Shown here: piece after piece, positions 1 to 25,110 of the stretch
How the letters are laid out: the number at the start of each line of letters is the position of its first letter
How positions within the stretch are numbered: position 1 is the stretch's first letter
DNA from: Opitutia bacterium KCR 482
Lineage (GTDB): Bacteria > Verrucomicrobiota > Verrucomicrobiia > Opitutales > Intestinicryptomonadaceae
Direction of reading: 5' to 3'
Assembly (NCBI GenBank): GCA_029269845.2
Contig: CP149973.1
Location: 210,001-242,000 of the forward strand
Length of the DNA: 32,000 bases
The notes under the pieces: model-generated
Databases searched by the model: none
What the model was told of the DNA's origin: nothing
What the model saw: the letters and a program-made list of their open reading frames with translations, nothing else
Position numbers and translations under genes: made by a program

Positions 1-1649
1 TTGCCGTGGAAGACGTAGAACATTGCAGTGCCCGTTCCCGCGCGGTAGCCGCCGCCGCGCTCGTTGCGCTTGTCCCCGAACGCGTCGGCGAAAGAATCCA
101 GAAGGCGCACGGCGAGCGCGTCGGCGCAGTCGTCGTCGAGACCCATTTTCGGGGCTTCGTTGCGGAGTTTTCTCAGCAGCTCGGGCGCGTTTTTGAAATT
201 CGTGCGGACGGCCTCGAGCATATCGGAAGCCGAAACGGATTTTTCGTCGAAGCAGTATTTTTTCACCGCCGCCAGCGAGTCAACCGCCGTCGAAATACCC
301 GTTCCGTGCACGCCGTAGTTGTTATATTTAAGGCCGAACGAAATGTCGCGCCCCCTTTCGATTGCGTCCGACATAACCGACATCATCGGCGCGGGCTTCA
401 TATAAATGTTGCGGTGGCGCAGACACATTTCGTCGGCGCGGGCTTTGATTTGGCGCTCGACGAGCGAGTAAAACTCGTCGAAAGTTGCGCAGGTCGGCAG
501 GTCGGCAAGCGCGAAGCTTACGCAGTCGACGAGCGAAAGCGCGTCGATGTTGGGAATGTCCGTGCCGCACTTGGGCACGATAAACTCCCAACACGCGGCA
601 ACCACGTATTCGTGCGCGTCCTCGGGCGAATAACCCTTCTCGATGAGGCTCGGAATCACAACGTCGTCGTTGCTGTACTGCGGGAAGCCGAGCCCGATTT
701 TGGTAAGCTCCGACCCCTTTTCGAAAACCTCGAGCGGCGTTTTCGAATCTACGCGGATATTGATTTTGGGGTCGATTAGCGCAAGTTCGTAGCTTGCCCT
801 CAGCGCCATTTCGGAAAGCTCGTTGAACATATATTCGCCCGAAAGCGAACGCCCGCCGAGCACAAGGCTCTGCCCGTTGTCGCCCTGCTGCATTCCGATG
901 TAAAGGTCGCTGTCCTTGTTGCACGAAAGGAAAAATTCTTCGAGCAAATCGAACGCCTCATCTTTCGAAATTTTGCCGCCGTCGACGTCTGCGCGGTAGT
1001 ACGGATAAAGGTATTGGTCAATCCGTCCGAGCGTGTTGTGGTAGTTGCCCGCCGCCCATATCGAGAAGTGCATAATGCGTAGCAGCTGCAACGCCTGGCG
1101 GAAGCTTTTCGCCGCGCCTCCGCGCACTGCCCGCAGGACTTCGGCGATGTCCGGCTGTCCGATTTTCTCCGCTTCTATCGCATACCTGTCTATCAAATTC
1201 TGAACGGCTTCAATCGAGCGGATTGCCGATTCCAGAAAGATGCGCCCCTGCGCGTCGGCCGTTTCGAGCCCTTTTTTTGCCGCGGCCTTGCGCGAGTCCA
1301 AACCCTCGGCGAGAACGCGCTCGTAGTCGGGCGAAAGGTTGAAGACCTCTCCCTTTTCGTGGATGAAATGCGTCGTCGAAATCTGCTCCCATTCCGACGG
1401 CGTGAAGTAGTCGGGAATGTCCCTTATCGTGCGGGTGAAAACTATTTTTTCGTTCGGCAGAATAACGGGAGTTTCCGCGGCGAGAAACGCCTCGAACATT
1501 CTGCCCGACCGCTCCTGCGCCGTCATTCCCGCCGCCCGGAAGTCCTCCGCCAGTTCGTCGAGACGCGCCGATTTCGCGTCGCGGCGGAAGGCTCTGTGAA
1601 GCCTGTCGTCCACGATATATTTTTTTAGTGATTGTATGCGTTTGTTCAT
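1..1649 (-). CDS. Glycyl radical enzyme (PFL2-like superfamily), N-terminal 549 codons only; the C-terminus with the glycyl loop lies beyond the left edge
   Basis: Absent from the supplied ORF track because there is no stop inside the window. Hand translation of the minus frame from ATG 1649..1647 is open to the edge: MNKRIQSLKKYIVDDRLHRAF...SFRQALQLLRIMHFSIWAAGNYHNTLGRIDQYLYPYY...MFNELSEMALRAS...GFPQYSNDDVVIP...EYVVAACWEFIVPKCG...GYRAGTGTAMFYVFHG. GRxDQYLYPYY, NELS and the Cys-x-Glu loop are GRE hallmarks. ATGA overlap with the upstream activase stop. Confidence 0.85.
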   Translation of the reverse strand, partial: MNKRIQSLKKYIVDDRLHRAFRRDAKSARLDELAEDFRAAGMTAQERSGRMFEAFLAAETPVILPNEKIVFTRTIRDIPDYFTPSEWEQISTTHFIHEKGEVFNLSPDYERVLAEGLDSRKAAAKKGLETADAQGRIFLESAIRSIEAVQNLIDRYAIEAEKIGQPDIAEVLRAVRGGAAKSFRQALQLLRIMHFSIWAAGNYHNTLGRIDQYLYPYYRADVDGGKISKDEAFDLLEEFFLSCNKDSDLYIGMQQGDNGQSLVLGGRSLSGEYMFNELSEMALRASYELALIDPKINIRVDSKTPLEVFEKGSELTKIGLGFPQYSNDDVVIPSLIEKGYSPEDAHEYVVAACWEFIVPKCGTDIPNIDALSLVDCVSFALADLPTCATFDEFYSLVERQIKARADEMCLRHRNIYMKPAPMMSVMSDAIERGRDISFGLKYNNYGVHGTGISTAVDSLAAVKKYCFDEKSVSASDMLEAVRTNFKNAPELLRKLRNEAPKMGLDDDCADALAVRLLDSFADAFGDKRNERGGGYRAGTGTAMFYVFHG

Positions 1650-2401
1650 AGAACAGTATATTTTATATTGTTTTTTGTGAATTCGTCAATAAAATGCGGT
1701 TGTTTCTCTGTGTCGAATGTCGGAGAATATTTTTTGCCTACCATGTAATATTTTGCGCCGGCCGTCTTGTGGTACGGCAGAATTTCGACGCGGACAAGGC
1801 TTTTCGCCCCCGCGAGAATCTCCGAGAGCGCGAGCATATTTCCGCGCGTGTCGTTGACCGCCGGAATCAGCGGAACGCGCACGATAAACGGGCGCGCTGC
1901 GGCGCAGAGCCATCGCAGGTTTTCGAGGATTTTTGCGTTGTCGACCCCCGTAAATTTTTTGTGCGTTTCGGAATCGACGGCCTTGCTGTCCATTAGAACC
2001 AAATCTACGGCTTCGGCGATTTTGCGGAACACTTTCGGCTCGGCATAGCCGCTCGTTTCGACCGCGCAGTGTACGCGCCCCTTGAGGCGCGAAACAACGT
2101 CGAAAAGGAATTCGTGCTGGGCAAGAGGCTCGCCGCCCGAAAAGGTTATTCCGCCCTCGTTGAGAGCGAATATTTTTTCGTCGCGCAGAAGTTTTTCGGC
2201 AAGCCAGCCCGACTCGACAACGCGCCCGCAGACCGAAGTTTCGCCGTTTTTTTTGACGAGCGTTTCGGGCGCGAACGAAAGCCCCTCCGGGTTGTGGCAC
2301 CACTGGCAGCGCAGCGGGCAACCCTTCAAAAATACGGTCGTGCGAATCCCCGGTCCGTCGTTTACGGCGAAGTCTTCGATGCTGAAAACCGTCCCGAGCA
2401 T
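1646..2401 (-). CDS. Glycyl-radical enzyme activating enzyme (radical SAM, short PflA-like type)
   Basis: 251 aa. N-terminal FAVNDGPGIRTTVFLKGCPLRCQWCHNPE (CX3CX2C radical-SAM cluster plus the GRE-activase signature). GGEPL SAM-binding motif. Stop TGA 1648..1646 overlaps the GRE ATG. Confidence 0.9.
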   Translation of the reverse strand: MLGTVFSIEDFAVNDGPGIRTTVFLKGCPLRCQWCHNPEGLSFAPETLVKKNGETSVCGRVVESGWLAEKLLRDEKIFALNEGGITFSGGEPLAQHEFLFDVVSRLKGRVHCAVETSGYAEPKVFRKIAEAVDLVLMDSKAVDSETHKKFTGVDNAKILENLRWLCAAARPFIVRVPLIPAVNDTRGNMLALSEILAGAKSLVRVEILPYHKTAGAKYYMVGKKYSPTFDTEKQPHFIDEFTKNNIKYTVL

Positions 2402-2407
2402 TGCCGT

Positions 2408-3484
2408 TTAGCGTGCCGAAAATGCGTAGCGGCAGACGTGTTTGTAAACCCGCCCCTTTTTCAGAACTGTCGACGGAAAATCCGGCTGGTTCGGGCTGTC
2501 GGGGAAGTGCTGCGTTTCGAGCGCGAAAGTACCCCTGAATGCGTACGGTCTGCCGCTTTTGCCGATTTCGCCGTCGAAGAAATTTCCGCCGTAAAACTGC
2601 ATTGCAGGCTCTGTCGTAAAGACCGACAAAACGCGCCCCGAAACGGGGTCGAAAACCTCGGCGGCGAAGTCGAGCGCGCCCTCCGCGGATTTGTTCAAAA
2701 CCCAGTTGTGGTCGTAGCCGTTGCCGCGCTTCAGCTGGATGTCGACGCACCCCAAACGCGAGCCTATTACCGTCGGGCGCGTGAAGTCGAACGGCGTGCC
2801 CGCAACGTCCATAAGCTCGCCCGTGGGAATCATATTTTCGTCGATAGGCGTAATGCGCGAAGCGTCGATTGTCATAACGTGGTCGTTGATGTCGCCGACG
2901 CCCTCGCCGTGCAGATTGAAGAACGAATGGTGCGTAAGGTTTACGATTGTGTCGCCGTCGCTTGTCGCGGTGTGGACTACTTCAAAGGCGTCGTCGTCGG
3001 TAAGGCGGTATGTCATATCGACGGCGAGCGTTGCGGGATAGCCTTCGTCGCCGTCGGGCGAGAGAAGGCGGAATTTTATTTCCGATTCGTCCGCCGAAAC
3101 GACGTCCCAAACTTTCATATCGAAGCCTTTGAAACCGCCGTGAAGCGAATTTTCGCCGTTGTTTACGGGCAGCTGATACGCCTTTCCTCCGAGCGAAAAC
3201 CTGCCCTTTGCGATGCGGTTGCCGAAACGCCCGATTGTCGCGCCAAGAAAACGCTCGCCCTTGTAGTTTACGTATTCGTCGAGCGTTTTGTGCCCGAGCA
3301 CAACATCGGCAAATTCGCCGTTCCTGTCGCGGACAAAGAGTTCGACCACGCGCGCGCCGAAGTTTGTGACCGACATTTCGGTGCCGTTTTTGTTTTTCAA
3401 AATGTAAAGCCCGACCTTTTTCGAATCTATTTGCGCGTCGAAATCGGCTGGGTTGAGTTTGCTGAATTGTTTTTTCCGCTGCAT
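2408..3484 (-). CDS. galM: Aldose 1-epimerase (galactose mutarotase family)
   Basis: ORF 2408..3622. Likely start is the internal ATG 3484 (MQRKKQFSKLNPADF...). Motifs VNLTHHSFFNLHGEG, NSLHGG, FALETQHFPDSPNQPDFPS. Only 6 nt lie between its stop and the activase start. Confidence 0.85.
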   Translation of the reverse strand: MQRKKQFSKLNPADFDAQIDSKKVGLYILKNKNGTEMSVTNFGARVVELFVRDRNGEFADVVLGHKTLDEYVNYKGERFLGATIGRFGNRIAKGRFSLGGKAYQLPVNNGENSLHGGFKGFDMKVWDVVSADESEIKFRLLSPDGDEGYPATLAVDMTYRLTDDDAFEVVHTATSDGDTIVNLTHHSFFNLHGEGVGDINDHVMTIDASRITPIDENMIPTGELMDVAGTPFDFTRPTVIGSRLGCVDIQLKRGNGYDHNWVLNKSAEGALDFAAEVFDPVSGRVLSVFTTEPAMQFYGGNFFDGEIGKSGRPYAFRGTFALETQHFPDSPNQPDFPSTVLKKGRVYKHVCRYAFSAR

Positions 3485-3516
3485 TAAAAGAGTTGAATAC
3501 CCTTTTGACGTGTTTT

Positions 3517-3561
3517 GCGAGAAAAAAAACTCCTTTCGCGGTCGGAGTTTGCATTTCTCGC
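3517..3561 (-). promoter_or_regulatory. Compound hairpin / terminator-like element in the leader of the galM-activase-GRE operon
   Basis: Minus-strand RNA reads GCGAGAAA-ugc-AAACUCC-gaccgcgaaa-GGAGUUU-uu-UUUCUCGC. The inner 7-bp stem is followed by a U8 run; an outer perfect 8-bp stem can sequester the U tract. The element ends 32 nt upstream of galM ATG 3484. Confidence 0.4.
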
Positions 3562-4092
3562 AGAAGTTGGAAATAATGGCAGAAAAGCGCGGGGTAGGGC
3601 TGTTGTCCTTTCTCCAACGCAAACATTCTTTTAACCATTGTTCCGATGGAAATCGTCGGTGAATACGCCAAACTTTGCGCTTTTCTTAATGATAAATCTT
3701 GTGCGATACGTTTGAATTGAGCATATTGGCGCGGAATTGGCGCGATTGCTGCTCATAACCCGTTAGAAAAGTGCGATAAGCCCCACGATTGAGTCAAAAA
3801 GGGGCGGTTTTTAGCTTATAATAGACAGACTGTTTAATAATATTTTCGCTATTTGCCGCGATTTTCAACCCAACAAACGCCTTCATAACTAATTTATATT
3901 ACGTTTGTTATGTTTATTTTCGCAGGCCGGACACGCGAAACAAAACCCAAGCGCTTTTCGATTTTCACGAATTAGACATAATATATATTGTGCGACAAAT
4001 TTGTTCGGCGGAGTTTGATTTATTATGCGCTTTTTTGGTGCGGCTTTCTTTGCAACGCGCTTTGTGTTGGCGCGTTTTTCAATAATTGCCGT

Positions 4093-4629
4093 TTAGAATT
4101 TGATAACATATTTTTTCAGGTCTTTGCGCTGGTCGGAGCTATATGAGTATATTTTAAGTAGCGACGTTGCAAACCATGCGGCGAATCCGATTCCCGTAAA
4201 AATCCACGGCGTCATTGTGCCGAGCACTTTTATCGGGTTCGGGTCTACCGCGTTTATTATCATGAAATTGAACGAAATCACCGCCATGGTGAAGTCTATT
4301 GCGAGCATTATGCCCAAGTCGAAAAAGCTCACGCGTTTTATGAAGTCGCCGCGTTTCGACACTATATGGTCGCCAAAATAGCTCAGCCATGCGAACGGTC
4401 CGACCAGCACGATGTCCGTCAGGAAAAGCGCGAGCGACATGAACATTTTATAGCCGTCCAGAAAAGCCTTGCGGAACGACAGGCTCACTTCGGGATATTG
4501 TTCGGCGACAAGCCTCAAATTCTCGTCGCTCGTGAAGTTAATATATGTCAGCGCAAAAAACGAAACGCCGAGCAACGCCCAAAAAAGTTTGCGCGTTATG
4601 CCTGCCGGTTTTCGATTTTGCGCCGCCAT
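4093..4629 (-). CDS. Hypothetical integral membrane protein (about 4 TM helices)
   Basis: 178 aa. Hydrophobic stretches LFWALLGVSFFALTYI, MFMSLALFLTDIVLVGPFAWLSYF, FFDLGIMLAIDFTMAVISFNFMII, WIFTGIGFAAWFATSLL. Its ATG (4629) directly abuts the stop of the upstream ACT gene (4630..4632). No family recognised. Confidence 0.6.
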   Translation of the reverse strand: MAAQNRKPAGITRKLFWALLGVSFFALTYINFTSDENLRLVAEQYPEVSLSFRKAFLDGYKMFMSLALFLTDIVLVGPFAWLSYFGDHIVSKRGDFIKRVSFFDLGIMLAIDFTMAVISFNFMIINAVDPNPIKVLGTMTPWIFTGIGFAAWFATSLLKIYSYSSDQRKDLKKYVIKF

Positions 4630-5016
4630 TTAGCCGAAAATGCGCTCCGCCGCGTCGATATCCTTAAACGACATCACCATTACGGGCTTGTCGTTTACGG
4701 GGCGCGTCATTGCGTACATATATTCCACATTCAGCCCGACTTCCGACGCCTTTCTGAGGATTTTCGAGAGTTCGCCGGGTTTGTCTTCAACTTCTATTGC
4801 AAGCACTTCGACGAGTTTTGCAAAAAATCCGTTATCTTTGAGCGTACGCGCCGCTTTTTCGGGGTCGTCCACGATTGCGCGGACAATTCCGTAATCTTTT
4901 GTTTCCGAGATTGTTATGGTGTGGAGATTAATGTCCGCCTCGGCGAGCGTCTTGCAGACTCTTTCAAGGTGTCCGGGGGTGTTTTCCAAGAATACGGATA
5001 TTTGTTTTATTCTCAT
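4630..5016 (-). CDS. ACT domain-containing protein (the type found with IOR/PaaK clusters)
   Basis: 128 aa with two ACT-like halves: ISVFLENTPGHLERVCKTLAEADINL and LAIEVEDKPGELSKILRKASEVGLNV. Sits 15 nt downstream of the ligase. Confidence 0.8.
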   Translation of the reverse strand: MRIKQISVFLENTPGHLERVCKTLAEADINLHTITISETKDYGIVRAIVDDPEKAARTLKDNGFFAKLVEVLAIEVEDKPGELSKILRKASEVGLNVEYMYAMTRPVNDKPVMVMSFKDIDAAERIFG

Positions 5017-5031
5017 GTCGGGTTTTCCTTT

Positions 5032-6363
5032 CTAAATTTTTCGGTTGTCGATGACTCTTTTCGCCTTGCCGTCGGAGCGCGGGATTTTATTGGGTTCGAC
5101 AATTTTCACTTCGATTTTGATTCCGACTATGTTTGCAATCGACGTTTTGATTTTCTTGCGGAGCGCGTCTAGCTCCGAAACGCTGTCGGCGTAGTATTTT
5201 TCGTCTACTTCCACTTCGACCGTCACGGTGTCGAGGTCTTTTTCCCTGTCGAGAATGATTCTGTAATTCGGCGTGCATTCCTCGACCCTCATCAGCGCGA
5301 CTTCGATTTGCGACGGGAACACGTTTACGCCGCGGATGATGAACATGTCGTCGCTTCTGCGCCCTATTCTGCGAATGCGTCGGAGCGTTCTGCCGCATTT
5401 GCACGGCATGGTGATAATCGACGTAATGTCGTGGGTGCGGTAGCGGAGAATCGGCATCGCCCTCTTCGCCAATGTCGTGAGGACAAGCTCGCCCTCTTCG
5501 CCGTCGGGGAGCGGTTCGCCCGTTTCGGGATCTACGATTTCGGGGTAGTAGTTATCCTCCAAAATGTGGAGACCGTTCTGTTCGGAGCACTCGCAGCCGA
5601 CGCCGGGGCCCGTGATTTCGGAGAGTCCGTAGATGTCGTGCGCGACGACGTTCGTGTTTTTCTGAATGAAATTGCGCATTTGCTCCGACCACGGCTCCGC
5701 GCCGAAAACGCCGTGCGAAAGCGGCAGTTTTTTCATGTCGATTCCGTATTTTGGCGCGACTTCAATCAAGTGGATAAAGTAGCTTGGCGTGCAGCAGATT
5801 GCGGTTGTGCCGAAGTCGCGCATAATCATGAGCTGGCGTTCGGTGTTGCCCGTCGATGCGGGGATAACCGTGCAGCCGAGTTTTTCCGCGCCGCCGTGCG
5901 CGCCCAGACCTCCCGTAAAGAGCCCGTAGCCGTAGCAGATTTGGACGAAGTCTCCCCTATTGATTCCGCTCATGAGCAGGCAGCGCATGACGGAGGTTTT
6001 CCAAACGTCCATGTCGTCTTCGGTGTAGCCTACGACAATCGGCTTGCCCGTCGTGCCGCTCGATGCGTGCAGCCTCACGACCTCGTTTGTGGGGACTGCG
6101 AAAAGTCCGTATGGATATGTGTCGCGGAGGTCGGTTTTCTGTGTAAACGGAAGCTTCGATATGTCGTCGATGGACTTGATGTCGGACGGTTTCACGCCCT
6201 TTGCATCCATTCTTTCGCGGTAGAGGGCGACGTTTTCATAGGCGTGCTCTACCATCGCCGAGAGCCTTTGGGACTGGATGAATCTGAGCTGTTCGCGCGG
6301 CAGGTAGTCCATCGCGCTTACGGGGTTGAATTTTCCGTTTTTGTCGTTCCAATTTTGAGCCAT
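5032..6363 (-). CDS. paaK: Phenylacetate-CoA ligase family protein (aryl-acetate/CoA ligase)
   Basis: 443 aa. LPFTQKTDLRDTYPYGLFAVP, HASSGTTGKPIVVGYT (AMP-binding P-loop), YGLSEITGPGV, RYRTHDI, C-terminal KAKRVID. Classic PaaK architecture. Confidence 0.9.
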   Translation of the reverse strand: MAQNWNDKNGKFNPVSAMDYLPREQLRFIQSQRLSAMVEHAYENVALYRERMDAKGVKPSDIKSIDDISKLPFTQKTDLRDTYPYGLFAVPTNEVVRLHASSGTTGKPIVVGYTEDDMDVWKTSVMRCLLMSGINRGDFVQICYGYGLFTGGLGAHGGAEKLGCTVIPASTGNTERQLMIMRDFGTTAICCTPSYFIHLIEVAPKYGIDMKKLPLSHGVFGAEPWSEQMRNFIQKNTNVVAHDIYGLSEITGPGVGCECSEQNGLHILEDNYYPEIVDPETGEPLPDGEEGELVLTTLAKRAMPILRYRTHDITSIITMPCKCGRTLRRIRRIGRRSDDMFIIRGVNVFPSQIEVALMRVEECTPNYRIILDREKDLDTVTVEVEVDEKYYADSVSELDALRKKIKTSIANIVGIKIEVKIVEPNKIPRSDGKAKRVIDNRKI

Positions 6364-6387
6364 ATGTGTACGGAAATTGTGCTGCTG

Positions 6388-6864
6388 TTATTTTTTCGAA
6401 TTGCGCCCGAGCTTGAAGGCCTCCTCGTTTGCATCGCGGAGTTTTTCGGGGAAGAATTTTGCGATTGTTTCAAGCCAGCGGTTTTCGGGAATGTCGAGGT
6501 AGTTGCTGAGCACGCCGAGAGCCGCTACGTTTATAGCCTTCGCGCTTTTGAGCTTTGATACGTCGAAGTCGGCGGGCGAAATCACCACGCCGTCGGGCGC
6601 GAGCGACGACTTGTGGACGTCAGACCATTCGGGTTCGAGCGACAGCAAAAAGTCAATCTTGCCCTCTCCTATCATCGGGCTTACGACTTTTTTGCCGAAG
6701 CGCACGTCGCTTGATATCGAGCCGCCGCGTTGCGACATTCCGTGGACTTCCGCCTTTTTGACGTCGTAGCCCTCTTCGAAAAGCAGTTCGCTGAGAATAA
6801 GCGACGCCTTCAAGACGCCCATGCCGCCGAGACCCGCAGTGCGAATGTTTGTAGTTTTTTCCAT
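6388..6864 (-). CDS. iorB: Indolepyruvate:ferredoxin oxidoreductase, beta subunit
   Basis: 158 aa. GLGGMGVLKASLILSELL...HGMSQRGGSISSDVRFG is typical of the gamma-type domain of 2-oxoacid:Fd oxidoreductases. Lies 3 nt after iorA. Confidence 0.85.
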   Translation of the reverse strand: MEKTTNIRTAGLGGMGVLKASLILSELLFEEGYDVKKAEVHGMSQRGGSISSDVRFGKKVVSPMIGEGKIDFLLSLEPEWSDVHKSSLAPDGVVISPADFDVSKLKSAKAINVAALGVLSNYLDIPENRWLETIAKFFPEKLRDANEEAFKLGRNSKK

Positions 6865-6867
6865 GGT

Positions 6868-8463
6868 TTAAGCCTTTTTCATTTTTGCGAGGTTCGCCGC
6901 CGCAAGCAGGCAGGGCTGTTTGAGAATAATCAGCGTAAGCTCGTTCGTAGCCAATTTTTCTTCGAGGTAGCTCTTGATTTTTTCGCCGTCGCGCACGGGG
7001 TTGAACTCAACCACGTTCTGGACGCCGATTGCCTTTGCGACGTCCGCAATCGAAACCTTGTGCGGCGCGGGTGTGTGGTCGAGCTTTCTGCCCGTTCCGG
7101 GGTGTTCCTGTTGGCCTGTCATCGCGGTCGTGGAGTTGTCTACAACCACCACGACGTGCCCCGTTGCGGGCGGATTGTAGACCATTTCGAGAAGCCCCGT
7201 GAGACCGCTGTGCATGAAAGTGCTGTCGCCGATAACGCTTACGACTTTCCGCGCCTGCTCTTCGGGAAGGACTTTCCTAAGCCCTATTCCCATGCCGATT
7301 GACGCGCCCATGCAAATTTGCAGGTCCATTCCGCTTACGGGGCGCATTGCCGCGAGCGTGTAGCAGCCGATGTCGCCCGAAACTATGCAGTTGAGTTCCA
7401 CGAGCGGCTTGAAGCTGAAAGCGTGAGGGCAGCCGTTGCAGAGTTGCGGCGGCTTCATTTTGAGAAGGAGCGCGGCGTAGTCTGTCCTGCCCTCTATTTG
7501 CGCCTTTGCCCTGTCGGAATTGAATTCGCCGAAACGCCACACTTCGTCGCGCGGCTCGACGTTTGCGCCGCCCGCAAGCAGCAGTGTAGACATGTAGGGG
7601 TCGCCCTCTTCCACCACTACGCAACGCTTGTATTTTTTCGTAAATTCGGCGATTTTCTTTACGGGAAGCGGGTTCGAGAACGAGACTTTGAAGAAGCCCG
7701 CGTCGGGAGCCGCCTCCATTGCGTGCTGGAACGCCACGCCGCTTGCGATTATCCCCAGCTCGTCCGACTTGCCCTCGATTATTTTGTTCGGCGATTCGCC
7801 GGACTCGTTCCACGCGAGCATGTCGGCGTGCTTCTTGCGGAGGCGTCTGTGCGCGGGCTTTGCGTGCCCGGGGACCATGACGTGCACTGTGATGTCTTTT
7901 GCGTAGTTCGCGGGGTGGATGTCTTCAACCGCGTCGAGGTCGTACGAAACAACCGTATTGCTGTGGGCAATGCGTGTTGTGGTTCTAATGATGAACGGAA
8001 TCCCCCATTTGCGGGAAAGTTTGAACGCAAGGCGCGTGAGGTCGTAGGCCTCCTGCGAGTCGGCGGGTTCGAGGACGGGGAGTCCGCCCGCGTATGCAAG
8101 CGAGCGGGTATCCTGCTCGTTTTGGCTCGACGCCATTCCTGGGTCGTCTGCTACGACCGCTACAAACGCGCCCTGAACGCCGCTGTATGATGCCGTAAAG
8201 AACAGGTCTTGGGCTACATTGAAGCCGACGTGCTTCATTGTTACCATGGAATTTGCCTCCGCAAAAGCCGCTCCCAGCGCGACTTCCGCGGCAACTTTTT
8301 CGTTCGGCGCCCATTCGGCGTTTCCGCCGAGCAGGGAAAAGTTTTCGAGAATTTCGGTCGATGGCGTTCCGGGGTAGCCCACTCCGAGGGCGCAACCCGC
8401 GTGGCGTGCGGCGAGGGCTATTGCCTCGTTTCCGCTCAAAAGTTTCTTTACGATATTTGACAT
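6868..8463 (-). CDS. iorA: Indolepyruvate:ferredoxin oxidoreductase, alpha subunit (TPP-binding)
   Basis: 531 aa. LSGNEAIALAA...GYPGTPSTEI. TPP motif GDSTFMHSGLTGLLEMVYN. Cys motifs LCNGCPH and GDIGCYTL. Confidence 0.9.
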   Translation of the reverse strand: MSNIVKKLLSGNEAIALAARHAGCALGVGYPGTPSTEILENFSLLGGNAEWAPNEKVAAEVALGAAFAEANSMVTMKHVGFNVAQDLFFTASYSGVQGAFVAVVADDPGMASSQNEQDTRSLAYAGGLPVLEPADSQEAYDLTRLAFKLSRKWGIPFIIRTTTRIAHSNTVVSYDLDAVEDIHPANYAKDITVHVMVPGHAKPAHRRLRKKHADMLAWNESGESPNKIIEGKSDELGIIASGVAFQHAMEAAPDAGFFKVSFSNPLPVKKIAEFTKKYKRCVVVEEGDPYMSTLLLAGGANVEPRDEVWRFGEFNSDRAKAQIEGRTDYAALLLKMKPPQLCNGCPHAFSFKPLVELNCIVSGDIGCYTLAAMRPVSGMDLQICMGASIGMGIGLRKVLPEEQARKVVSVIGDSTFMHSGLTGLLEMVYNPPATGHVVVVVDNSTTAMTGQQEHPGTGRKLDHTPAPHKVSIADVAKAIGVQNVVEFNPVRDGEKIKSYLEEKLATNELTLIILKQPCLLAAANLAKMKKA

Positions 8464-10482: not shown

Positions 10483-10512
10483 AACCCCGCCGCAACTTGT
10501 TGCGTTTTAAGG

Positions 10513-10542
10513 AACGCCCTTCGGAAACGGAGGGCGTTTTTT
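10513..10542 (+). terminator. Rho-independent terminator after htpG
   Basis: AACGCCCT-tcggaaacgg-AGGGCGTT followed by a T-run (10537..10542), about 30 nt after the htpG stop. Confidence 0.75.
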
Positions 10543-10700
10543 GCGCGGCAAAAGGCGGGGCAAATGTGCGTTTGTTTAAAAAAGTCAAAATAGTCCAAGA
10601 ATCGGAGGATAAAGAACAAAGCGAATGTCGGATTTCCCTTGCTTATACAAACTTTTGTTTTTATTGTATTATAAATAACGAAAAGGAGAAAACCACATCA

Positions 10701-12266
10701 ATGAAAAAATACCTCATACTATCATGCGCGCTTGCGGCGTCCTCCGCTTTCGCCGCAACTGTAACAATAAACGGTTCGGCGGTCTCGGGCGAGGCGCAAC
10801 ATAACAGCGTTGTCAGCTCGAACCCGGGCGACGACGTTGTTTTATCGGTAGACGAAACGCTCAAAAACTACCACTTCTTCGGCAAAAAAGACAACACCAT
10901 GAAGTCAATGTCGTCCACTGCGTCGTACATACACTTCTTCGGGCCCTATCAAAACGGCGCGAACAGCGGCATTATCGACATTGCCGCGGAATCTGGCGAG
11001 GCCGACGCAATGAACTTTGCGGGCAAGTTCTACATGAACCTCGCAAACCTTAAGATTACAAATTCGGTCGGCGGAAAAAACGCCACGGCGAATTTGAAAT
11101 TCGACATCTTTGAATTATGGAGCATGGCGATCGCGCCGAACAACCAAATCCAAAGCATTTCGTTCGAAAACGTCAAGGCTAGCGTAACGACGGCGAACGG
11201 CGCGATCATAGGCTCTACCGGCTACAATTATACGCCGAATGCTGCGTCGATAAACGTGGCGGCAAATGCCGAGGTTGCGTGGAACGGCGCGCAAACAGTC
11301 GAGCAGAACGGCATAATAAACGTTATGGGCTCGTATACAAACGCGGGCGCGCTGACTTTGAAAAAAGGCGGTCAGACCATCGTCGATAGCGGCGCGACCT
11401 ACAACATCAACGCAGGCGGCACGATAGCGGGTAGCATTACGACAAGCGGCACGCTCAACGTCGCGGGCGGCACGACGTTCTCGAACGGCTCTAGCATCGA
11501 CGTCATCGACGGCAACGTTGTTTTTGCCGACGACACAAAGTTCGGAACAACCGCCGCTATCAATATTTCGGGCGGCACGGTTACCGCGACAAAAGACCTC
11601 GAATTCGGCTCTATTATCAGCACGGGCGGCAAGCTCGTACAGACGACCGGCGACGGCATTAAAATCATCGGCAACTCGACGCTGTCCGACAACGGCGTTT
11701 GGGATATCAAAAACAAAGTTCAGGTAAACGGCGGCGCTTCGTTCACGCTCGACAACAGCAACCTGAATTTGTCCGGCACAAACCAGCGTTTCATTCTCGT
11801 CAACGACGGCACAATCACGCTCAACCAGATGTACAAAACCTCGCGGGCGGGCGGAGCTATTCCGATTGTGTTTACGGGCACGAAATCGGGCACTTTGATT
11901 ATCGGCGGCGACATTTCGTTGGAGTTCATCAACAACATAAACGACAAAGTTGCTAACATCGTTCTCGCAAACGAAGACGCGGTGCTGAGGCTCGTTTCGG
12001 TTGACGACACGCTGAAATTCAAGAACGACAACGGCTTGGCTATCTTCAATTTCAGGGAAAACGCGATTTTTGTCGGCGATAGCGCGACCGAATCCGAACT
12101 TGCGCTCGTCAAGCTCTATTCGGGCATGGACGATTCGAGCTACATCGGAACGGCGAAACTTGTGAACGGCTGGCTGACGGCGGCTATCCCCGAACCCGCC
12201 GAATGGGCGGCGATTTTCGGCGGCATTGCGCTGGCGATTGCGGTCTACCGCAGAAGAAGGGCATAA
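10701..12266 (+). CDS. Secreted beta-helix-like repeat protein with C-terminal PEP-CTERM sorting signal
   Basis: Start moved to ATG 10701: RBS AAAGGAGAA at 10683..10690 and signal peptide MKKYLILSCALAASSAFAATV. Gly/Thr/Asn-rich repeats (GGTIAGSITTSGTLNVAGGTTFSNGSSIDV...). C-terminus IPEPAEWAAIFGGIALAIAVYRRRRA = PEP motif + TM + Arg cluster. Confidence 0.85.
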   Translation: MKKYLILSCALAASSAFAATVTINGSAVSGEAQHNSVVSSNPGDDVVLSVDETLKNYHFFGKKDNTMKSMSSTASYIHFFGPYQNGANSGIIDIAAESGEADAMNFAGKFYMNLANLKITNSVGGKNATANLKFDIFELWSMAIAPNNQIQSISFENVKASVTTANGAIIGSTGYNYTPNAASINVAANAEVAWNGAQTVEQNGIINVMGSYTNAGALTLKKGGQTIVDSGATYNINAGGTIAGSITTSGTLNVAGGTTFSNGSSIDVIDGNVVFADDTKFGTTAAINISGGTVTATKDLEFGSIISTGGKLVQTTGDGIKIIGNSTLSDNGVWDIKNKVQVNGGASFTLDNSNLNLSGTNQRFILVNDGTITLNQMYKTSRAGGAIPIVFTGTKSGTLIIGGDISLEFINNINDKVANIVLANEDAVLRLVSVDDTLKFKNDNGLAIFNFRENAIFVGDSATESELALVKLYSGMDDSSYIGTAKLVNGWLTAAIPEPAEWAAIFGGIALAIAVYRRRRA

Positions 12267-22599: not shown

Positions 22600-25110
22600 A
22601 TGCTGGTTTTGCTCGACGGAATCGCGCCGAAAACGGAGGCGGTCTACAACGTCTACATCGCCGAAAACAGGAAGAATATAGAGCCGAAAATCGCGGTTTC
22701 AAAACAGGCAAGCTACATTCTTAGCGACCTCGTCTCCGAAATCGACAACGGCTGCGACGCCGCGGGGCTTGCCAAATTGACGGCGTCAAGCGCAAACAAA
22801 ATCGAGAACGCAAACTTCGAAAAGGGCTTCGACGGCTGGAATTTCCGCTCGCACAAGGGAAGGGAAAACACGGGCGAAATTTCGCTTGTTGACGGCGGCG
22901 TTTTCGGCGGCAAGGCGCTTTCGATAAAATTCAACAAAGACATCGCGATTGAGCAAAGCAGGGAGTTCAAATTCCCAGGGGGCGCGTCGTCGGGAAAACA
23001 CAAATACGCCCGCCAAAAATTCCCCAACCACTGGTTCGGAATCAGGCGGAAAATCGAAACCGAAGCTGGGCGCAAATACATAAACATCGCGTGGGTTAAG
23101 GGGCTTGAAGAGTCCGTCTATCAGTCGATTCCGCGAATGGCGGTTTTCAGCGGAGGCAAAAATTCCTACGCCCGCGCGGCAATAAAACCGACCTCCGAAT
23201 GGAAAGTCAAAAGCTGCACCTACACGGCAAAAGACGGCGACGAAATTTGGATTGACGCATTCGGCGTGAACAAAGCCGACATTCTAATCGACGGGCTTTT
23301 CGCTGCGGAATGCATCGACGCCACAAAATTCGAATACCAAGCCCGCGCCGACTTCGAAAAGCCGCGCACAATCGCGTGGAGCGTAAGCCCGATAGTCAAG
23401 GTATTCGACTTTTTTGCGCCGCCCGCCGAAAGCGGGGAAGCCGCAATTTCGCTCGCAAAAAACGAACAGGAAAACCTGCAATTTGCCCTGCGCTCTAACG
23501 AGCCGTTGCGGCGGCTCGAAATATCGGCGACCACCCCGAAACTCGTCGGCGGAAGCGCGACGCTCGAAGCCCCGACCGTCTCCGTGGCGCGGAATGTCGT
23601 GTGCGACGCGCCGAGCCGCTACCAAATCTTCAACGGCGTAAAATTCAACGAACGCTGCGTCCCCCGAAATTCGATGATACAACTCTACCCCGACCCGCTC
23701 GTAAGGCAGAATTTCGTCGAACTTTCGCCGAACAAAACGGAGTCGGTGTGGCTGAAATTCGGCGCGGACGAATCCGCGGCAGCAGGCGAATACGAGGGAA
23801 AAGTCGAGTTCAAAGACGGCGGCAAAACCGTGCTCGCAGTGCCCTACCGCGTAAGGGTGCGCAACTTCGCAATCCCGAAATCGCCGAGCCTCGGCGCAAT
23901 TTTCGACTCGCGCGGAAGCGGCTTCAACGGCGGCTGGCGGCAGCCGTTGAAAGCCGCGGGCATAACAAGCAAATTCTACGACATCTCGCAGCTTCAAGAA
24001 TTCATGGCGCAATACAGAACGTCGATAAACAAGCCGCCGCGAATCAAATTCTACACGAAAGACAGCAAGCTGTCCGCCGATTTTTCGGACTTTGACAAGT
24101 TCTGCGAAAACGCGTTCGGCAAACTCGGCACGCGCCTCATGTACCTGCCCAATCCGATGGGTGGTTTCGGCTTCGCAAACCCGATAAACAGGATAAAGCG
24201 CGACGACCCCGACGCCAAGCCGATTGCCCCCTACGACGGCGAATACCCCTACGCCGAAGCCGACAAAAAAATCCTGCGCCCCGAATTTGTCGCCGAATTG
24301 CAGGCGCAGGCAAAACTCGTCTACAAGCACCTCGACGAAAAGGGGTGGCGCGACCGCTTCCTCTGGTACGTCTGCGACGAACCTCACTGCGACGCCGACG
24401 GAATCGCCGACATGACAAAAGCCTATTGCGCGGCGGTCAAGGCGGCCGACCCGAAAGCGCGTCTGTATTCGAGCACTTGGGCGTACATTCCCATGCTCGA
24501 AGGCGGAATCAGCGTATGGGGCATAGACATGTCGTCCGACAGAACGCCCGCCGACATCGAAAAAATCGAAAAGCGCGGAGAGGAAAAAGCGTTCACCACC
24601 GACGGCAACTACTGCATCAACACGCCCTACTGCGCACAGGAGCGGCTCATTCCGCTCTACTGCTTCGCTGGCGGATTCATCGCGCACGAGTACTGGGGCG
24701 TTGACTGGTACACGCGCGACCCGTTCAAATGGGGCTTCCACTACGACAGAATCAGCTCGCCGTCGCCTACCGTGCGCAACAGAACGCGCTACCCCAACGG
24801 CGACGGATACTTTGTGTATTCGGGCGAAATCGTCGGGCGCAGCGAAATCTTCCCGTCGGTGAGGTTCGAATCGGTTCGCGACGGACAGGAAGACTACGAA
24901 TACTTCAAGATTCTCGAAAAGCTCGCCGCAAAAACGGGCGACGCTTCCGCGCAAAAAACGCTCGAAAAAGTGAAGTCGCTCGCGGTCTACCCCAACGCGC
25001 GGGGCACGCGCTCGACGGAACTTCTGCCCGACCCCGCAAAGCTCGAAAATTTGCGCGAAGAAGTTGCCGGGCAAATCGAAAGGCTGAACGCCGAAAGCCC
25101 GCAAAAGTAG
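22600..25110 (+). CDS. DUF4091 / GH123-like glycoside hydrolase family protein (C-terminal part; coding probably continues upstream to about 22411)
   Basis: 836 aa from the first ATG. CBM-like IENANFEKGFDGWNF. Putative catalytic FLWYVCDEP (Asp-Glu at 24376..24381). DUF4091-type C-terminus YPNGDGYFVYSG...SVRFESVRDGQEDYEYFKIL. No signal peptide of its own. Confidence 0.8.
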   Translation: MLVLLDGIAPKTEAVYNVYIAENRKNIEPKIAVSKQASYILSDLVSEIDNGCDAAGLAKLTASSANKIENANFEKGFDGWNFRSHKGRENTGEISLVDGGVFGGKALSIKFNKDIAIEQSREFKFPGGASSGKHKYARQKFPNHWFGIRRKIETEAGRKYINIAWVKGLEESVYQSIPRMAVFSGGKNSYARAAIKPTSEWKVKSCTYTAKDGDEIWIDAFGVNKADILIDGLFAAECIDATKFEYQARADFEKPRTIAWSVSPIVKVFDFFAPPAESGEAAISLAKNEQENLQFALRSNEPLRRLEISATTPKLVGGSATLEAPTVSVARNVVCDAPSRYQIFNGVKFNERCVPRNSMIQLYPDPLVRQNFVELSPNKTESVWLKFGADESAAAGEYEGKVEFKDGGKTVLAVPYRVRVRNFAIPKSPSLGAIFDSRGSGFNGGWRQPLKAAGITSKFYDISQLQEFMAQYRTSINKPPRIKFYTKDSKLSADFSDFDKFCENAFGKLGTRLMYLPNPMGGFGFANPINRIKRDDPDAKPIAPYDGEYPYAEADKKILRPEFVAELQAQAKLVYKHLDEKGWRDRFLWYVCDEPHCDADGIADMTKAYCAAVKAADPKARLYSSTWAYIPMLEGGISVWGIDMSSDRTPADIEKIEKRGEEKAFTTDGNYCINTPYCAQERLIPLYCFAGGFIAHEYWGVDWYTRDPFKWGFHYDRISSPSPTVRNRTRYPNGDGYFVYSGEIVGRSEIFPSVRFESVRDGQEDYEYFKILEKLAAKTGDASAQKTLEKVKSLAVYPNARGTRSTELLPDPAKLENLREEVAGQIERLNAESPQK

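Follow-up and report, generated by a model that had tools for sequence, protein, structure and literature searches.

The 32,000-nt stretch of DNA analysed here (the window) comes from Opitutia bacterium KCR 482, a gut member of the Verrucomicrobiota (contig CP149973.1, positions 210,001 to 242,000). It carries at its left edge a minus-strand operon of galM, a gene for a radical S-adenosylmethionine (SAM) activating enzyme (the activase) and a gene for a glycyl radical enzyme (GRE). The family to which this GRE belongs, and its probable coupling to sugar uptake, are the subject of this work. A preliminary description of the same DNA had given the order and coordinates of the three genes, with a 6-nt gap between galM and the activase gene and an ATGA overlap before the GRE gene, and had read 549 stop-free GRE codons up to the window edge; the sequence and its translation agreed with both (Table 1).

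Table 1. Features of the GRE operon and of the genes directly upstream of it (positions in the window; ORF, open reading frame).
Feature	Position	Strand	Basis or remark
galM, aldose 1-epimerase (mutarotase), 358 aa	2408..3484 (ATG 3484, stop 2408)	-	Aldose_epim 2.3e-83; first operon gene
Radical-SAM GRE-activating enzyme, 251 aa, short form	1646..2401	-	Radical_SAM and Fer4_12 (Pfam)
GRE, N-terminal 549 of 688 codons	1..1649	-	Stop-free translation; ten-stranded PFL-like barrel (PF02901) 3.7e-92
ATGA overlap of activase stop and GRE start (ctATGAac), translational coupling	1646..1649	-	Sequence read
Cys loop A-A-C353-W354-E355	585..599	-	Translation; C353 and E355 at nt 593..585
Activase C28-x3-C32-x2-C35 radical-SAM [4Fe-4S] cluster motif	2297..2320	-	...KGCPLRCQWCHNPEG...
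608-nt intergenic region upstream of galM, presumed promoter/regulatory	3485..4092	no strand	No ORF with a family match
iorA	8463->6868	-	Upstream neighbour
iorB	6864->6388	-	Upstream neighbour
PaaK-like aryl-acid-CoA ligase	6363->5032	-	Upstream neighbour
ACT-domain protein	5016->4630	-	Upstream neighbour
178-aa membrane protein, no Pfam match	4629->4093	-	Upstream neighbour

The last 139 GRE codons lie to the left of the window, together with a gene for a sugar porter of the major facilitator superfamily (MFS). Both were seen on two contigs (L004 and L005) that agree with the window at all but 1 of 3484 nt and contain the complete gene of the 688-aa GRE. The C-terminal end of this protein was ...LIVRVWGWSGYFVELDECYQDHVIARTEFALG, also written ...NLIVRVWGWSGYFVELDECYQDHVIARTEFALG, and its RVWG glycyl loop (...VRVWG663WSGY...) placed Gly663 25 residues before the C-terminus. 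An RVxG-type loop 25–30 aa from the end of a protein of ~700 aa had been predicted, and the full-length GRE with its RVWG loop bore this out. The C-terminal Gly_radical domain (PF01228), which lies outside the window, was precomputed for full-length relatives. The window fragment was identical to the full-length protein P0001 (688 aa) at 546 of 549 positions.

It was found that the activase protein is present on 22 public contigs, and eight of these places were retrieved (L001–L008). All eight had the same order of galM, activase, GRE (688 aa) and MFS (442 aa), with spacings of 6, -4 and 18 nt, and a galM product of 358 aa was called on eight related contigs. When six strains were compared, codons with synonymous differences outnumbered those with non-synonymous ones in all four operon genes (26:14 in the GRE and 14:0 in the activase), indicating purifying selection and that the operon genes are not pseudogenes. 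The possibility that the GRE is a pseudogene or a fragment was therefore rejected, the 688-aa frame with its glycyl loop being present in L004 and L005. These results demonstrated that galM-activase-GRE-MFS is an intact, conserved operon. The GTDB species representative is an uncultured Verrucomicrobiota metagenome-assembled genome (MAG; L015) with 96% identity, and the nearest relatives at 70–78% identity are Opitutales.

The galM product scored above the cut-off of the PRK11055 galactose-1-epimerase subfamily (305.6 against 240 bits) and below that of the Leloir equivalog TIGR02636 (317 against 398 bits). The MFS protein scored above the cut-off of the sugar-porter subfamily TIGR00879 (322.8 against 237.8 bits); its best equivalog model was XylE, at 336.6 bits against a cut-off of 608, so that it is not an XylE equivalog. 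In the window species, a GH106 gene lies beyond the end of the MFS gene and converges with it. Upstream of galM, only weak sigma-70-like matches were obtained in a promoter scan, and no Rfam family reached the gathering threshold anywhere in the window, so that no riboswitch or leader RNA was found there. The boundary of the operon was placed in the region upstream of galM, because L001 and L002 carry mobile-element genes (resolvase, ParB and others) beyond it.

As judged from its sequence, the GRE belongs to a sharply defined, distinct family within the PFL-like branch of the GRE superfamily. NCBIfam scoring of P0001 gave 329.5 bits for the PFL2-3 subfamily TIGR01774 (cut-off 678.2), 287 for HypD (1100), 273 for PflD (NF007437; 1109), 257 for HpsG/HpfG (1000), 228 for CutC (1050) and 73 for PflB (TIGR01255; 994), and no cut-off was reached. 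The closest solved relative by sequence was the Clostridium butyricum glycerol dehydratase (GDH; 5.2e-78), with PflD, HypD, propanediol dehydratase (PD), CutC and YbiW close behind. The identity to GDH, PflD and YbiW was 29–31%, and that to any solved or characterised GRE did not exceed 31%. The claim that the GRE falls outside the characterised clades was thus upheld. An AlphaFold2 model from 21 family members (pLDDT 90.4, pTM 0.91) was compared by Foldseek with solved C-x-E eliminase and isomerase GREs, and TM scores of 0.82–0.89 at 22–27% identity were obtained, GDH coming first (TM 0.88); decarboxylase and benzylsuccinate synthase structures matched at 18–20% identity. In an exhaustive search over 1.84 billion cluster representatives, ~25 full-length clusters at 50% identity shared one signature, namely the Cys loop V-A-A-C-W-E-F-[IV] with the Gly loop V-R-V-W-G-W-S-G-Y. 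These proteins of ~640–710 aa are 34–60% identical to the query, and the signature is kept down to 34% identity. By all-against-all comparison, the family splits from GDH, PflD and YbiW at 40% identity and above.

The family is a subfamily of PFL2-type C-x-E GREs without earlier characterisation. A June 2026 review counts six C-O, one C-N and three C-S eliminases and three isomerases, besides decarboxylases, X-succinate synthases, formate-lyases, ribonucleotide reductase and aminoacyl radical enzymes, and it speaks of entire GRE clades without validation (PMC13450708). No GRE listed there acts on a free sugar or is tied to a mutarotase. A literature search for GREs in mutarotase or sugar contexts and among GRE papers of 2024–2026 found no characterisation, though subscription-only papers may escape such a search. 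The earlier remark that no characterised GRE is operonic with galM agreed with both sources.

Two further groups of homologues were met in the family search. One is a sister clade of compact GREs (P0159, P0169, P0170, P0190, P0192, P0207, P0213 and others; ~640–815 aa, mostly 680–750), with the Gly loop RVWGF[SNC]AY and the Cys loops [ST]SACWEPL, GCWE or NDGCWE, which appears to be uncharacterised too. The other consists of six proteins (P0143, P0152, P0154, P0157, P0166 and P0198) that are 33–41% identical to the GRE and have neither the catalytic Cys nor the Gly of RVxG (for example AAGSCF or SSRGEP in the Cys loop, and RLWSS or nothing in the Gly loop). They appear to be 'radical-dead' members of the GRE family.

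The thiyl loop had been read as A-A-C353-W-E355, a Cys-x-Glu arrangement (the C-x-E motif as defined in PMC13450708) rather than the Cys-Cys of PflB, and nt 599..585 indeed translate to AACWE. The active-site Cys had also been said to lie ~80–140 residues earlier than in other GREs, behind a compact N-terminal region. Residue 353 compares with 433 in GDH, 438 in PD, 434 in HypD and 489 in CutC (PMC13450708), and residue 102 aligns with GDH residue 162, several internal loops being shorter as well. The substrate-contact residues of GDH were mapped onto the GRE through a HMMER alignment at ~31% identity. His281, Cys433, Glu435 and Asp447 of GDH are retained as His204, Cys353, Glu355 and Asp364; His164 is replaced by Asn104, Ser282 by Asn205 (or is variable), Tyr339 by Gly259, Val434 by Trp354 and Tyr640 by Gly540. 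Five of the nine mapped positions therefore differ, or four of the eight in the substrate-lining set of GDH, with V434/W354 as the ninth; the expected non-identity of the substrate-lining residues was confirmed in this alignment.

Among 28 family representatives, N104, G259, C353, W354 and E355 were invariant, H204 and G540 were found in 27, and position 364 was D or E in all. A polar loop, D246-S-D248-L-Y250-x-G-x-Q254-Q-G-D257-N258-G-Q260, was almost invariant, and so were N367, H448, R536, Y545, N597, T602 and E604. This pattern suggests that the radical machinery (Gly, Cys and Glu) is intact, and the two Tyr-to-Gly changes would enlarge the cavity. The Asn/Gln/Asp-rich lining, together with the Trp, would be usual for a carbohydrate site. 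In GDH, His164 is the general acid for the leaving hydroxyl (PMC13450708).

The activase scored 237 bits against the GRE-activase model TIGR02494 (cut-off 174), with two matching stretches between which the ferredoxin-like insert is missing, and 174 bits against the PflA model TIGR02493, under the cut-off of 232. It contains the C28-x3-C32-x2-C35 motif only, and the two auxiliary [4Fe-4S] motifs of the insert, a feature of the activases of PFL2-type GREs, are absent. The single-cluster activase noted before was therefore found in this organism, but not across the GRE family, in which an insert-bearing form of 281 aa occurs in many lineages. The insert-free form of ~250 aa was seen in Bacteroidales, Opitutales and other Verrucomicrobiota, an Akkermansia sp., a Brevinematales MAG and two Clostridia. 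The ~281-aa form with two CX2CX2CX3C motifs was seen in most Bacillota, Prolixibacteraceae, Spirochaetota, Lentisphaerota and Kiritimatiellia. Comparison of the activases of L016–L093 also revealed an intermediate form in some Clostridia, with one CX2CX2CX3C motif plus additional Cys residues. The insert-free activase is thus a lineage-specific loss within one GRE family. The two forms provide a natural experiment on the need for auxiliary clusters, and the small single-cluster activase may be easier to reconstitute. As for gene order, the activase precedes the GRE and is translationally coupled to it here, as had been described, but either gene may come first at other loci.

A scan of one genome per GTDB species gave at least 597 species genomes with a confirmed GRE relative, from five or more phyla. 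Verrucomicrobiota, Bacteroidota, Bacillota, Spirochaetota, Lentisphaerota and Kiritimatiellia were among the matches listed. The carriers include Bacteroides fragilis, Parabacteroides, Alistipes, Prevotellaceae and Prolixibacteraceae in the Bacteroidota, and Hungatella hathewayi DSM 13479, Clostridium symbiosum, Enterocloster, Blautia and Oscillospiraceae in the Bacillota. The protein cluster of B. fragilis holds 1,914 member sequences. Tandem GRE-activase pairs of the family, two per locus, were observed in an Acetatifactor sp. (L066) and a Clostridia MAG (L075), with GRE lengths of 766 and 679 aa and of 717 and 793 aa, respectively.

For the gene neighbourhood, the 80 best species-level loci were taken, ORFs were called and clustered, and partners were counted by tblastn. 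These counts are lower bounds, and the crude ORF caller misread some genes in GC-rich loci (the activase and galM of L015). An adjacent activase was found in 73 of the 80 loci, a sugar-porter MFS in 26, a CUT2-type ABC ATPase in 12, a LacI regulator in 15, and a GntR regulator with a sugar-binding domain in 12. GalM was present in 12 loci (~15%) from three phyla. The glycosidases comprised a GH51-like arabinofuranosidase (10 loci), GH127 (10), a GH36-type enzyme (13) and GH78 (2), and a few loci had GH78/GH106 rhamnosidases. The same-strand neighbours, 222 in all, were scanned with Pfam in two batches, and the 25 commonest families were listed per batch. The scans gave Sugar_tr 24, Peripla_BP_4 16 and ABC_tran 11 for transport, and Alpha-L-AF_C 13, Aldose_epim 7, Melibiase/Raffinose_syn 10 and FGGY 3 for enzymes. 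At least one partner for carbohydrate transport, regulation or hydrolysis occurred in 43 of the 49 loci of at least 15 kb, in keeping with the early hint from the mutarotase at a sugar substrate. It is evident that the GRE family is strongly associated, across phyla, with monosaccharide transport, sugar-responsive regulators and glycosidases, and that the targets of these glycosidases are arabinofuranosides, alpha-galactosides/beta-L-arabinopyranosides and rhamnosides. No phosphotransferase system (PTS) genes and no bacterial microcompartment (BMC) family were among the commonest families listed per batch.

The linkage of galM, activase and GRE recurred in Verrucomicrobiota (L015, L016, L012 and the window), Bacteroidota (L009, L021, L023, L031, L032, L047 and L048) and Bacillota (L035, L044, L067 and L076). 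The linkage first seen in the window therefore extends over three phyla, including B. fragilis and another Opitutales MAG, but it is not universal. In B. fragilis, the genes lie inside a polysaccharide utilisation locus in the order hybrid two-component system regulator, activase, GRE, MFS, GalM, GH127; a second Opitutales showed galM, activase, GRE, MFS, GH106. An activase-GRE-MFS core, with or without galM, is common to Opitutales and B. fragilis. In two Clostridia (L050 and L072), araA, araB and araD divergently adjoin a GRE-activase-ABC unit. In Blautia and C. symbiosum, the GRE-activase pair is flanked by a GH78 rhamnosidase, an ABC system, LacI and an aldo-keto reductase. At three loci from three phyla (L040, L055 and L076), a FucI-like isomerase, an FGGY kinase and a class II fructose-bisphosphate-type aldolase lie beside the GRE and may constitute the downstream pathway in some genomes. 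The best NCBIfam match of the isomerase was the sulfoquinovose isomerase SftI, at 90–148 bits against a cut-off of 700. The GH51-like partners matched only GH51 alpha-L-arabinofuranosidases in the PDB, and a Sip1-type GH36 partner matched an Arabidopsis protein deposited as galactinol--sucrose galactosyltransferase 6. Of the solute-binding proteins, one is similar to MglB and others to ribose- or polyol-binding proteins, the identity being low in every case.

Small phosphatases were also observed beside the GRE in Bacteroidota, of the IMPase family in L024, L027, L028, L029 and L009, and of the unrelated HAD/MDP-1-like type in L043 and L047. In E. coli, ybiW likewise has a sugar phosphatase gene (YbiV) as its neighbour, and the recurrence of the phosphatases may point to an intermediate that is phosphorylated and possibly a toxic deoxy-sugar.

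On balance, we consider that the GRE rather probably represents a new C-x-E eliminase/isomerase subfamily coupled to sugar uptake, which would act, without oxygen, on a C-O bond of an imported neutral sugar of plant origin, likely arabino- or galacto-configured. By homology, the activase would install a radical on Gly663, which would be relayed to Cys353. If the common C-x-E mechanism applies, the thiyl of Cys353 would take H from a hydroxyl-bearing substrate carbon, Glu355 would deprotonate that hydroxyl to give a ketyl radical, the beta C-O bond would be cleaved, and Cys353-SH would give the H atom back. The gene context points to a neutral monosaccharide or a very close derivative as the substrate, which would be freed by the neighbouring glycosidases and imported by the co-transcribed sugar porter, with its anomers equilibrated by GalM. 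L-Arabinose, D-galactose or a modified form would be the likeliest. L-Arabinose appears to be the one sugar that fits GH51, GH127, GH27/36, GalM and araBAD together, D-galactose shares its ring configuration, and the rhamnosidases seem to fit the co-occurrence of these sugars in pectin and arabinogalactan-protein side chains.

Overall, the enzyme would either dehydrate its substrate or isomerise it with ring opening, as YbiW does. In the first case, abstraction of the anomeric C1-H and loss of the C2 substituent could give a 2-deoxy-aldonolactone; such a reaction would make the enzyme anomer-specific, which would explain the mutarotase. In the second case, a deoxy-keto sugar could arise through a C2 or C4 ketyl and ring C-O scission as in YbiW/PflD. 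Where genes for the FucI-like isomerase, the FGGY kinase and the class II aldolase lie nearby, as in some genomes, these enzymes might take up the product. YbiW and PflD provide the precedent for C-x-E GREs on sugar rings (PMC13450708). The more specific proposal that this is the first GRE on a free, unphosphorylated reducing sugar, as an anomer-specific radical dehydratase or a ring-opening isomerase, is put forward as a doubtful one; an arabino- or galacto-pyranose that loses its C1-H and its C2 substituent would be an example.

Several points weigh against a sugar eliminase or isomerase. The substrate was deduced from the gene neighbourhood alone, in which the partner glycosidases are heterogeneous (arabinofuranosidases, alpha-galactosidase-type enzymes and rhamnosidases) and fix no single sugar; GalM occurs in only ~15% of the loci, and some operons are minimal, without downstream enzymes. 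L-Arabinose and D-galactose have ordinary non-radical pathways, which leaves the need for a radical enzyme unexplained; the actual substrate may for this reason be some modified or less common sugar released from the same glycans. The residues were mapped through an alignment at 31% identity and not through coordinates, and the replacement of the general-acid His of GDH by Asn leaves the protonation of a hydroxyl leaving group without an evident donor.

Since GDH came first by both sequence and fold, dehydration of other substrates has to be weighed. The enzyme could be a GDH-like polyol dehydratase that attacks a longer alditol at its terminal 1,2-diol, or a cyclitol (for example L-arabinitol, galactitol or an inositol), with a 2-deoxy-aldose or deoxy-inosose as product. 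In this scheme, the alditol would come from an aldo-keto reductase, and GalM would work on the product once it has cyclised. The change of Tyr339 and Tyr640 to Gly would open the pocket just where a longer polyol chain extends, aldo-keto reductase genes are present in 4–6 loci, and IMPase-family or HAD phosphatases adjoin the GRE in a few Bacteroidota. The solute-binding protein of one locus (L046) is moreover most similar to PDB entries that include polyol-bound proteins, among them 4RS3. Ribitol or xylitol is the ligand of 4RS3 (PMC10935332). We nevertheless regard such a polyol dehydratase as unlikely: the dominant partner glycosidases release aldoses and not polyols, the general acid His164 of GDH is lost, only few loci have the reductase, the binding proteins are too distant from their matches (167–237 bits) for ligand inference, and no deoC/deoK-type genes for 2-deoxy-sugars were among the 25 commonest Pfam families per batch. 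Quite unlikely, in our estimate, is a dehydratase of a small molecule that arises when pentoses or deoxyhexoses are cleaved (1,2-propanediol, ethylene glycol, glycerol, or hydrated lactaldehyde or glycolaldehyde), for which the link to sugar operons would reflect only the origin of the substrate. In the minimal operons, the GRE and the activase are accompanied solely by a sugar porter and either galM or a glycosidase. GDH has Tyr residues that constrict its pocket and a His as general acid, and the present GRE has other residues at these positions; all dehydratase models scored far under their cut-offs, and no aldehyde dehydrogenase or Fe-alcohol dehydrogenase was among the 25 commonest families per batch. 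Speaking for it, the closest characterised relatives are glycerol and propanediol dehydratases, an aldo-keto reductase could serve as aldehyde reductase, and GH78/GH106, a rhamnulokinase-like gene and the isomerase/kinase/aldolase trios of some loci would yield lactaldehyde or glycolaldehyde. A microcompartment-type diol dehydratase was disfavoured in particular, because no shell gene was matched at E<=1e-3 in the 80 loci by tblastn with PduA as the query, nor was any BMC family among the commonest neighbours.

A radical glycoside lyase, in which a C2 ketyl would expel the C1 aglycone of a small glycoside, such as an arabinoside or rhamnoside of a plant phenolic, to form a 1,5-anhydro-ulose, is chemically analogous to the beta-scission at C1 in YbiW/PflD and is matched by context enzymes for plant glycosides (GH78, GH51 and GH36). 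It is held to be very improbable, since the transporters are of the monosaccharide type (sugar-porter MFS and CUT2 ABC), conventional glycosidases are already there, and a mutarotase would have no role for a glycoside substrate. A pyruvate or 2-ketoacid formate-lyase, scarcely credible to us, is what most databases name this protein ('pyruvate formate lyase family protein', 'formate C-acetyltransferase'), and these names are all that speaks for it. The loop is A-C-W-E, and the absence of the Cys-Cys pair refutes a formate-lyase; the TIGR01255 score was 73 bits against 994, and PflB structures are matched by the C-terminal domain only.

GREs carry out demanding oxygen-free reactions in gut microbes, and are responsible there for the production of trimethylamine, p-cresol, skatole and H2S and for the use of hydroxyproline, and each newly assigned GRE family has opened a new metabolic route. 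The present family lies consistently within plant-glycan utilisation loci. If the GRE acts on a free sugar, it would provide an oxygen- and NAD-independent entry to the catabolism of pentoses and hexoses (or of methylated or rare plant sugars), a route that hundreds of gut and rumen species including B. fragilis would use. This would also be a new reaction class of the superfamily and a new step in the fermentation of arabinan, arabinogalactan and pectin as dietary fibre. Cultured carriers are at hand in B. fragilis, H. hathewayi DSM 13479, C. symbiosum and Enterocloster. The signature VAACWEF plus VRVWGWSGY can be used for annotation in place of the misleading 'pyruvate formate-lyase'.

In the rest of the window, five co-directional minus-strand genes at 4093-8463 lie directly upstream of the galM operon (Table 1), and as a set they look like an arylpyruvate/arylacetate module. 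A functional link between these iorAB-paaK genes and the GRE operon was rejected, since other strains carry different DNA there. A GH123-like protein of 836 aa with a weak Pfam match (3.4e-11) is encoded at 22600-25110 (+), and a 589-aa ORF without a Pfam family at 10497-12266 (+) adjoins htpG. The remainder is housekeeping: a pheA-like chorismate mutase/prephenate dehydratase, ilvD, pheS/pheT, tatC and an SBP_bac_5 protein.

Compared with known systems, the GRE shares the superfamily with PflB, and the 251-aa activase is PflA-like in size and in its single cluster. The Cys-Cys pair of PflB is absent here, and only the C-terminal glycyl domain aligns. The other PFL2-type 1,2-eliminases (PD, HypD, CutC, IslA/IseG and HpsG/HpfG) have the same fold and C-x-E elimination logic, at 22–26% identity in structure alignments. 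However, they are ~790–850 aa long with the Cys at 434–489, none has a Trp between Cys and Glu, and their contexts of amino-acid, amine, sulfonate or microcompartment genes were not found around the present family. The likeness to GDH (PDB 1R8W/1R9D) is closer, with ~31% identity over 585 residues, a TM score of 0.88, the C-x-E Cys loop, the RVxG Gly loop, His281, Asp447, the GRxDQY motif and a dedicated radical-SAM activase. In contrast to GDH, the window GRE is ~100 residues shorter, ~60 of them N-terminal; its Cys loop reads A-C-W-E instead of G-C-V-E and its Gly loop RVWGW instead of RVAGY. Its activase lacks the ferredoxin insert, and its context is sugar uptake and glycosidases, whereas that of GDH is the formation of 1,3-propanediol.

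YbiW and PflD, the 1,5-anhydrohexitol-6-phosphate C-O lyases ('anhydroglycolysis' GRE isomerases), are the sole characterised GREs acting on sugar rings. They too have the C-x-E motif, in which the Glu binds the hydroxyl of the attacked carbon, and their gene clusters also hold a transporter, an aldolase and a sugar phosphatase. PflD keeps the His at the GDH-164 position, whereas the present family does not. The substrates of YbiW and PflD are PTS-imported 6-phosphates without an anomeric hydroxyl; here, a proton-symport sugar porter or an ABC transporter is found instead, together with a mutarotase, implying an unphosphorylated reducing sugar. Taken together, the GRE family probably follows the same radical logic within the same superfamily; its signature and its architecture (a compact N-terminus and optional auxiliary clusters in the activase) are new, and its substrate class would be new as well.

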